A stretch of 10,366 nucleotides of DNA from a virus (Duplodnaviria > Heunggongvirae > Uroviricota > Caudoviricetes): IMG/VR virus record IMGVR_UViG_2695420456_000007; one strand, given 5' to 3'. Position 1 is the stretch's first letter, and the number at the start of each line of letters is the position of its first letter. A program made the translations under genes and the position numbers. Below, in pieces: positions 829 to 1,587 of the stretch. The notes below the pieces were generated by a model, which did no database searches, was not told where the DNA came from, and worked only from the letters and a program-made list of their open reading frames with translations.

Positions 829-1587
829 TTAAATTCTGGTCCTTACAATATCAACCTGAAGATTCTTATCTTGTGCTGATTGATAAATGACAAACCTTTT
901 ACTACCTGCATTGAAAGAAGTAGACAAAACCAGACAATTATCATAACGAGCAAGAACATAATACCAACCATCATTATAATTAATCATTTCATATTCTTTC
1001 TTAAACTGTGGTTTGTAATATCCTGTCAGAAATGAAAAAAGCCAGAAATATGCCACAAAAGCAATCATCACAATCTCAAAAAAATGTTTTTTTATAAATG
1101 GCTTATCATAGAAGCATGATACCGATAAAAATCGCCCATAAGATCTTATCGAAATTGTAACCGCCAGCGCAATCGCTGCTGACAGTAGCAAAAGAGGTAC
1201 CTGAATCTTCTGTCTCAATATAGAAAACTCAATAATTGCCGGCACAAACAATAATTCCACAGCAAAATAAAGGCGAAATACATTTAGCTCTTGCATAGAA
1301 TGTTTTCTTTTCACTGCGAAAAAGAATACAACACCAATACCCCAACCGATAAGAAATATAGCAATGACGATAACTGCAAAAAATAAACTTCTGGCAACAT
1401 CATCAACACCTGCACCTACAATCCACCATGGGAAGCCGTAGTAAAAAGAAGTACCCCATCCATAGAAATAAGCACTCCCCCATCCAAGGCATCCCATGTA
1501 GGCAATAAAAAGTGAAGAACTCCTGAGCAGCGCACCATCCTTCATAACCACCCCAATACAAGATGATAACATTGGCTTACAACTCAT
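829..1587 (-). CDS. Hypothetical multi-pass membrane protein (252 aa), AT-rich, first ORF downstream of the pR'/qut-like late promoter
   Basis: Uninterrupted ORF with an ATG start. The translation has several long hydrophobic segments (for example FFAVIVIAIFLIGWGIGVVFFFAV and FEIVMIAFVAYFWLFSFLTGYY) and a hydrophilic C-terminal tail. Base composition is visibly more AT-rich than the flanking Q gene. No recognisable family. Confidence 0.6.
   Translation of the reverse strand: MSCKPMLSSCIGVVMKDGALLRSSSLFIAYMGCLGWGSAYFYGWGTSFYYGFPWWIVGAGVDDVARSLFFAVIVIAIFLIGWGIGVVFFFAVKRKHSMQELNVFRLYFAVELLFVPAIIEFSILRQKIQVPLLLLSAAIALAVTISIRSYGRFLSVSCFYDKPFIKKHFFEIVMIAFVAYFWLFSFLTGYYKPQFKKEYEMINYNDGWYYVLARYDNCLVLSTSFNAGSKRFVIYQSAQDKNLQVDIVRTRI

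Follow-up and report, generated by a model that had tools for sequence, protein, structure and literature searches.

The first gene downstream of the late antiterminator Q and the late promoter pR' in the prophage segment analysed here (10,366 nts, hereafter the window) belongs, as judged from profile matches, to TfpB (PF27470) and PHROG 1521, two families that are catalogued but uncharacterised, and the terminator hairpin between promoter and gene has decayed to a 4-bp remnant. This gene, tfpB, is located at positions 829..1545 of the minus strand. As an element type it is ordinary, i.e., a moron in the slot between Q and the lysis genes that Stx phages use for stx. Its sequence, family and position are also already public: they can be found in the annotation of phage 434, in Pfam, PHROGs and RefSeq, and in publications on the Salmonella gene STM1630. 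What deserves attention is the uncharacterised family on the one hand and the missing tR' with its consequence on the other. Our general reading, to which we give an even chance, is that tfpB is a moron expressed in the lysogen whose product acts at the envelope to the benefit of lysogen or host fitness rather than in lysis.

The tfpB gene and its protein family

The window covers the early right and late control region of a lambdoid prophage, encoded on the minus strand in the order O/P, nin genes, an HNH endonuclease, NinG (3107-3769), NinI phosphatase (2445-3110) and Q. The longest open reading frame at the tfpB locus extends to 1587, and the initial annotation had described it as an AT-rich ORF of 252 aa encoding a multi-pass membrane protein of no recognisable family. 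The ORF, its composition and the multi-pass topology are upheld. Its G+C content is 36 %, compared to 51 % for Q, 45 % for NinI and 43 % for the window as a whole, and the hydropathy profile of the product displays four strong peaks and an aromatic, glycine-rich N-terminal segment, in line with the AlphaFold2 prediction described below. The length, however, probably has to be corrected on account of homologue starts and ribosome binding signals. The ATG at 1545-1543 corresponds to the start position in 22 of 28 aligned homologues and is the only candidate start preceded by a Shine-Dalgarno sequence (GGGGTGG), and the upstream “M1” ATG (1587-1585) falls within a conserved promoter-like -10 element. 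The gene thus most likely starts at ATG 1545 and encodes 238 rather than 252 aa. With dN/dS values of 0.09-0.19 against eight homologues, over dS up to >2, tfpB is a real gene under strong purifying selection.

The view that the protein has no recognisable family holds for older libraries only. In a search of 5.8 billion proteins, all of the 103 relatives (103/103) carried the precomputed Pfam tag PF27470.1, named “TfpB”; one relative with this tag (P0001) is 100 % identical to the window protein over the query region covered. A direct Pfam scan of the window protein yielded no match because the Pfam version scanned predates the PF27470 model. In PHROGs, the match to phrog_1521 (E = 2.1e-154) aligns protein residues 31-252 with profile positions 1-222 of 222. 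Scans against NCBIfam and PADLOC returned no match, the latter at E <= 0.1. The name TfpB presumably goes back to a protein of the Moraxella pilin-inversion region. No pilin or piv neighbours occur beside the distant TfpB members examined, and the names tfpB and tciB were encountered in the literature only as unrelated uses of the same strings.

When 1.84 billion representatives were searched exhaustively with a profile, 72 representative clusters were assigned to the family. Beyond the Enterobacteriaceae these include proteins from Neisseria, Actinobacillus, Gallibacterium, Avibacterium, Pasteurella, Mannheimia and Haemophilus ducreyi, all annotated as “hypothetical”; a locus search with an alignment of closer homologues returned six loci. 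Among 50,697 phage records only two contain the gene, phage 434 (100 %) and phage 2B8 (98 %). In E. coli it is far from rare: 692 of 5,426 complete genomes (about 13 %) are carriers, 679 of them with at least 99 % identity, the median copy number in carriers is 2, and many of them are O157:H7 strains. Many truncated copies of family members are also present in the databases.

When only close homologues were supplied, AlphaFold2 produced a poor model (pLDDT 57.7), which improved to a pLDDT of 78.5 and a pTM of 0.70 once distant members were added. The prediction comprises five transmembrane helices (residues 10-36, 47-79, 89-111, 116-136 and 155-181), followed at the C-terminus by a beta domain with five strands and about 55 aa (residues 184-235). 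A hand count of lysine and arginine residues in the loops gives 11 on the predicted cytoplasmic side and 3 on the predicted periplasmic side, which favours an inner-membrane protein of N-in/C-out topology. This orientation would place the beta domain in the periplasm. The first transmembrane helix and the first periplasmic loop, which are invariant, aromatic and glycine-rich (GWGSAYFYGWG-S-YYGFPWW, with YYGFPWW as the invariant loop), would face the same side. In the wide family alignment conservation is restricted to A15, A25, Y26, Y28, G37, G175 and Y195. Since no catalytic-looking residue is conserved across this alignment, TfpB may act stoichiometrically: it would bind or block a target at the periplasmic face of the inner membrane in a non-enzymatic manner. 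Foldseek searches of BFVD and the PDB gave no match below E = 0.001, and a profile search of PDB sequences found no match to TfpB. Foldseek matches to an SH3-like integrase C-terminal domain and to MscS were weak and not significant, and were discarded.

The late promoter, the decayed terminator and the downstream block

The Q gene (1825..2448, minus strand; Pfam PF03589 Antiterm, 1.2e-57) is of the lambda type; its nucleotide sequence is about 96 % identical to those of the Q genes in lambda, HK630 and HK446. The pR'/qut-like element initially recognised downstream of Q is borne out by its alignment with PR'/qut as annotated in the lambda-like phages HK630 and HK446 (1741..1782, minus strand). 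It consists of a -35 hexamer (TTGACT, 1782-1777), a 17-nt spacer that includes the Q-binding element, and a -10 hexamer (GAAACT, 1759-1754) which matches the consensus at three of six positions and is thus weaker than that of lambda, with four of six. Transcription would start near 1747, where a -10-like pause element (AATAAT, 1746-1741) is also found. Homology to the lambda pR' region ends about 15 nts past the start, and alignment with HK630 and HK446 shows that the window lacks the 6S body and the tR' hairpin of lambda.

The initial annotation had likewise noticed no tR'-like hairpin in front of the ORF, and closer inspection of the interval agrees with this. A consensus scan of positions 1588-1747 revealed no intrinsic terminator; as a positive control, the terminator of phage 434 was detected at the homologous place. 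Folding of the 200-nt leader showed nothing unusual (z = -0.10), Rfam has no match in the leader, and Rfam and ARAGORN together identified no RNA genes in the window. The 434 terminator, which is annotated in the phage record between the late promoter and the gene, has the structure AAACCCGC-TGCCGA-GTGGGTTT followed by a T run, with a predicted energy of -13.3 kcal/mol (RNAfold). What remains of it in the window, and the best candidate of a relaxed scan, is AACCTGC-CGCCGA-GTAG followed by T5 (1683..1712, minus strand), a 4-bp stem of -3.5 to -4.0 kcal/mol (RNAfold). When aligned with 434, the stem is seen to have lost 4 nts and to carry substitutions, and the same decayed version is present in phage 2B8. 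Neither the consensus nor the relaxed scan thus reveals an intact terminator that would isolate the ORF from pR'.

Both forms of the junction are widespread and stable, the decayed lambda-type junction being found in 572 E. coli genomes and the intact 434-type junction in about 620. Single O157:H7 genomes can carry both. In one such genome (loci L003 and L025), identical copies of the tfpB-DUF3927 module are found in two prophages; one copy comes after a lambda-type Q and the decayed terminator, whereas an 82-type Q and the intact terminator precede the other. In Yersinia, no terminator was found between Q and tfpB.

The first strong intrinsic terminator after pR' in the window is located at 372..398 (minus strand), about 1.35 kb past the promoter and after both tfpB and the DUF3927 gene. 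It has an 8-bp stem with seven G-C pairs followed by T8, a predicted energy of -15.1 kcal/mol (RNAfold), and is conserved in phage 434, where it is annotated as a terminator. The pR' of lambda is a constitutive promoter, and Q is required only for passing tR'. With the tR' hairpin decayed in what is a chimera of lambda-type Q and 434-type sequences, transcripts from pR' should cross tfpB and the DUF3927 gene without Q. The suggestion that tfpB is expressed under Q control is therefore doubtful, the more so as the gene has a conserved promoter-like element of its own. However, pR'-driven expression could remain dependent on Q if transcription ends in a Rho-dependent manner or is partly terminated at the 4-bp remnant.

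The candidate promoter of tfpB (1583..1612, minus strand) matches the consensus with TTGACG (1612-1607), an 18-nt spacer and TG-n-TATGAG (1591-1583); a second candidate, TTGTTA-18-TATCAT, lies at 1592-1563. A promoter-like element is present 36-40 nts 5' of the ATG in the window, in 434 and at loci L004, L007/L008, L018, L019 and L025. Homologues that keep this position include proteins with as little as 59 % (L004) and 68 % (L007/L008) aa identity, and the sequence further upstream is unrelated in these cases. The total number of promoter consensus matches in the region does not exceed that in shuffled sequences. A mapped transcription start site is available only for the Salmonella homologue, at a position different from that of the window candidate.

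Two routes may thus bring about expression: the sigma-70-type candidate promoter TTGACG-18-TGnTATGAG could drive tfpB directly in the lysogen, and the late promoter pR' would transcribe it as well, probably without Q in the lysogen and again on the late transcript. The terminator at 372-398 would stop pR' transcripts and thereby act as an effective tR' guarding the lysis genes. The pairs of tfpB copies behind intact and decayed tR' hairpins, sometimes within one O157:H7 genome, offer a natural test of such a conversion of the leader into a Q-independent operon.

The second gene of the block (585..743, minus strand) encodes a small membrane protein of the DUF3927 or “TciB-like” family (Pfam DUF3927, 3.4e-14; phrog_1470), a name which we take to derive from the tci genes of P1. 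An obligatory partnership between tfpB and the DUF3927 gene was considered and rejected, as the genes are not found together outside the near-identical module. Further downstream, a 36-aa ORF (MRTSLMLFPSIIFLVSSGCAWRG..., 339..449, minus strand) with a strong Shine-Dalgarno sequence (GGGAGG) and a signal- or lipobox-like N-terminus spans the terminator. Since its stop codon lies past the hairpin, the full peptide could only be made from read-through, i.e., antiterminated, transcripts. At this site, the phage 434 annotation has a 62-aa “putative membrane protein”. Antisense to the 36-aa ORF and the terminator, RefSeq lists a 132-aa “hypothetical protein” (WP_012578864.1; 106-504, plus strand), which looks over-called.

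The block is bordered by an IS2 end (1..91) that is 100 % identical to IS2 copies in 4,256 genomes; the junction between IS2 and the block is found in none of the 5,426 complete E. coli genomes. In related prophages, a class II holin gene is present shortly past the equivalent of window position 92, and the IS2 insertion may uncouple the lysis genes from pR'.

Elsewhere in the window, a 617-aa ORF (4720-6573, plus strand; 590 aa in RefSeq) with 34 % G+C lies on the opposite strand within the nin region and is another moron-like insert. Its sole match is phrog_9230, with none in Pfam, NCBIfam, PADLOC or the PDB. Upstream of it, an intergenic hexanucleotide tandem repeat, (AAATAG) x 6.8, occupies 4445-4485. 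Within the O-like replication gene, 3.8 copies of a repeat of about 20 nts (10012-10089) resemble the iterons of lambda-type origins.

Genomic contexts and possible functions of TfpB

Phages 434 and 2B8 carry the tfpB block between Q/pR' and their lysis genes. Lambda, HK630 and HK446 lack it; in these phages the same Q and pR' are followed by 6S/tR' and the holin gene. This presence or absence among related phages, the foreign composition and the multi-pass membrane product agree with the moron-like insert proposed initially, and homologues do sit between Q and the holin gene elsewhere, i.e., in phage 434 and O157 prophages. The gene would thus be an autonomous TfpB-family moron in a cargo slot. 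It follows Q genes of four unrelated types: directly behind a lambda-type Q in the window, in 2B8 and in one O157 prophage, an 82-type Q in 434 and in the O157 prophage bearing nleB2/nleC, and a PF06530-type Q in Yersinia, and about 3 kb behind a DUF1133-type Q in a prophage organised like an Stx phage. A 3-kb contig from a “Veillonella sp.” metagenome-assembled genome (L017) matches the Q-tfpB-DUF3927 module of E. coli at 100 % identity and is probably a binning contamination.

Family members also occur outside phage late regions. On ETEC plasmids (L004-L006) tfpB adjoins eltAB and STb, on a Klebsiella contig (L015/L016) it accompanies STb, and it is carried by 106 Shigella plasmids, among them the virulence plasmid pWR100; one of the Shigella plasmid records uses the label “TfpB protein”. 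The plasmid copies are often found amid IS debris. In S. enterica subspecies enterica, arizonae and diarizonae (L009/L020/L021), tfpB is divergent from sseJ, and in Neisseria arctica, Gallibacterium and metagenomic contigs it lies alone between housekeeping genes. The proximity to eltAB, STb or sseJ fits with an origin of these toxin and effector loci in the late-region cargo slots of phages, from which tfpB would have come with them; the association may simply reflect hitch-hiking from this common origin.

The Salmonella locus can be connected to published work. A primer used for the deletion of STM1630 matches exactly inside the Salmonella gene at L009, and the length of STM1630 and its spacing to sseJ agree with this locus, which makes STM1630 a member of the TfpB family with 46 % identity to the window protein. 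The S1 Text of PMC6785131 describes STM1630 as an H-NS-bound gene with a transcription start site and -10 element of its own, which is expressed in macrophages and in SPI-2-inducing medium and whose promoter has become inactive in the ST313 lineage. It was also grouped with SPI-2 genes when the transcription of avirulent regulator mutants was profiled (PMC2639726). As for phenotypes, the S1 Text cites Morgan 2004 for an attenuation of mutants in calf and chicken screens, whereas deletion in strain 4/74 increased rather than decreased intramacrophage replication (PMC6785131 S1 Text). The deletion mutant was hypermotile in a screen (PMC4219756), but the phenotypes that clean deletions confirmed do not include this trait (PMC4534456), and a role of TfpB in motility was for this reason not adopted. 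Overall, the phenotypes of STM1630 are modest and inconsistent, and they concern a homologue only 46 % identical to the window protein.

Superinfection exclusion, lysis modulation and abortive infection, the functions suggested initially, find no direct support, and PADLOC offers no match. Exclusion or abortive infection would nevertheless suit several features: if TfpB made in the lysogen blocked the DNA entry of other phages or killed infected cells, an AT-rich gene for a membrane protein in a moron slot would be typical prophage exclusion anatomy, the gene stands alone without partners, and the conserved surfaces are predicted on the periplasmic side, where incoming phage DNA crosses. The empty PADLOC scan weighs against this idea while still being compatible with an undescribed exclusion function. 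In addition, tfpB has been kept beside sseJ in the Salmonella core across subspecies and is expressed under SPI-2 conditions, which fits better with a host interaction. Its occurrence in just two of 50,697 phage records and the lack of evidence for toxicity also speak against exclusion, and we regard this explanation as unlikely. The possibility that TfpB is a lysis accessory, i.e., a holin-like, antiholin or timing protein paired with the downstream class II pinholin and SAR endolysin, derives its appeal from the position of a membrane protein gene on the late transcript, upstream of the holin gene in 434 and O157 prophages. Yet Pfam, PHROGs and NCBIfam give no match to holin, antiholin or spanin families, nor does any lysis-accessory match appear when PADLOC is included, and a 238-aa protein with five predicted transmembrane helices and a beta domain is unlike holins, which are small and have 1-4 such helices. 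In addition, most contexts of the family lack lysis genes, a 1.85-kb esterase gene and terminators separate tfpB from the holin gene in 434, and lambda-type phages with the same Q manage without tfpB. A holin or antiholin role was rejected on the grounds of architecture and of these contexts; TfpB is probably outside the lysis machinery, and an accessory function in lysis is very unlikely.

One could also imagine that tfpB is a passenger without function, a remnant in decay that has accompanied toxin genes or other late-region cargo. The IS debris around the plasmid copies, the many truncated copies in databases and the inactivated promoter of the Salmonella copy in ST313 (PMC6785131 S1 Text) would all be accounted for in this way. 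However, the selection signal described above largely refutes it. The full-length copies of at least 99 % identity in 679 genomes and the conservation of the family from Enterobacteriaceae to Neisseria and Pasteurellaceae also speak against a passenger status, which appears very improbable. The reading we prefer, an envelope-acting moron expressed in the lysogen, would have TfpB serve as a lysogen or host-fitness factor at the envelope in animal-associated bacteria, which is the weakest step of the proposed scheme. Doubtful as a whole is a more specific version, in which the pR' leader has been turned into a Q-free, two-gene lysogenic-conversion operon with a relocated tR', and TfpB is a new-fold envelope factor spread by phage late regions to virulence plasmids and the Salmonella SPI-2 regulon. 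In any event, one uncharacterised family spans about 13 % of E. coli genomes, Shigella and ETEC plasmids and a set of Salmonella genes co-regulated with SPI-2, and a phenotype established for any single copy would provide an annotation for all of them.

Comparison with known systems

The closest counterpart of the window gene is CPT_434_68 of phage 434 (“putative membrane protein”, OL657226.1), identical to E. coli WP_001302581.1, with 100 % aa identity over 238 aa. Phage 434 and the window also share the downstream DUF3927 gene, the small ORF and the strong terminator. The two differ in that 434 combines an 82-type Q with an intact hairpin, whereas the window has a lambda-type Q and pR' followed by the decayed hairpin; moreover, the window lacks the SASA esterase gene of 434 and has an IS2 end abutting the block. 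With respect to the lambda 6S/tR' leader, the layout of promoter, qut and pause element is the same to about +15. Beyond this point the window has neither the 6S body nor the tR' hairpin, and a strong terminator follows only some 1.35 kb on, after two genes.

STM1630 of Salmonella Typhimurium, which lies between steB and sseJ, resembles tfpB in family, length and the invariant N-terminal motif, and it is likewise AT-rich and horizontally acquired. In contrast to the window gene, it is chromosomal and outside a prophage, has its own mapped transcription start site and is grouped with SPI-2 genes. Finally, tfpB has much in common with the classical morons and late cargo of lambdoid phages, such as stx in 933W, bor and lom in lambda, and LT-II in lambdoid prophages: as an insert whose composition is foreign, it occupies a fixed late-region slot, has a promoter-like element on one side and a terminator on the other, and is carried by some related phages but not by others. 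Unlike the products of these genes, however, TfpB is predicted to be an integral inner-membrane protein rather than a secreted toxin or an outer-membrane lipoprotein.
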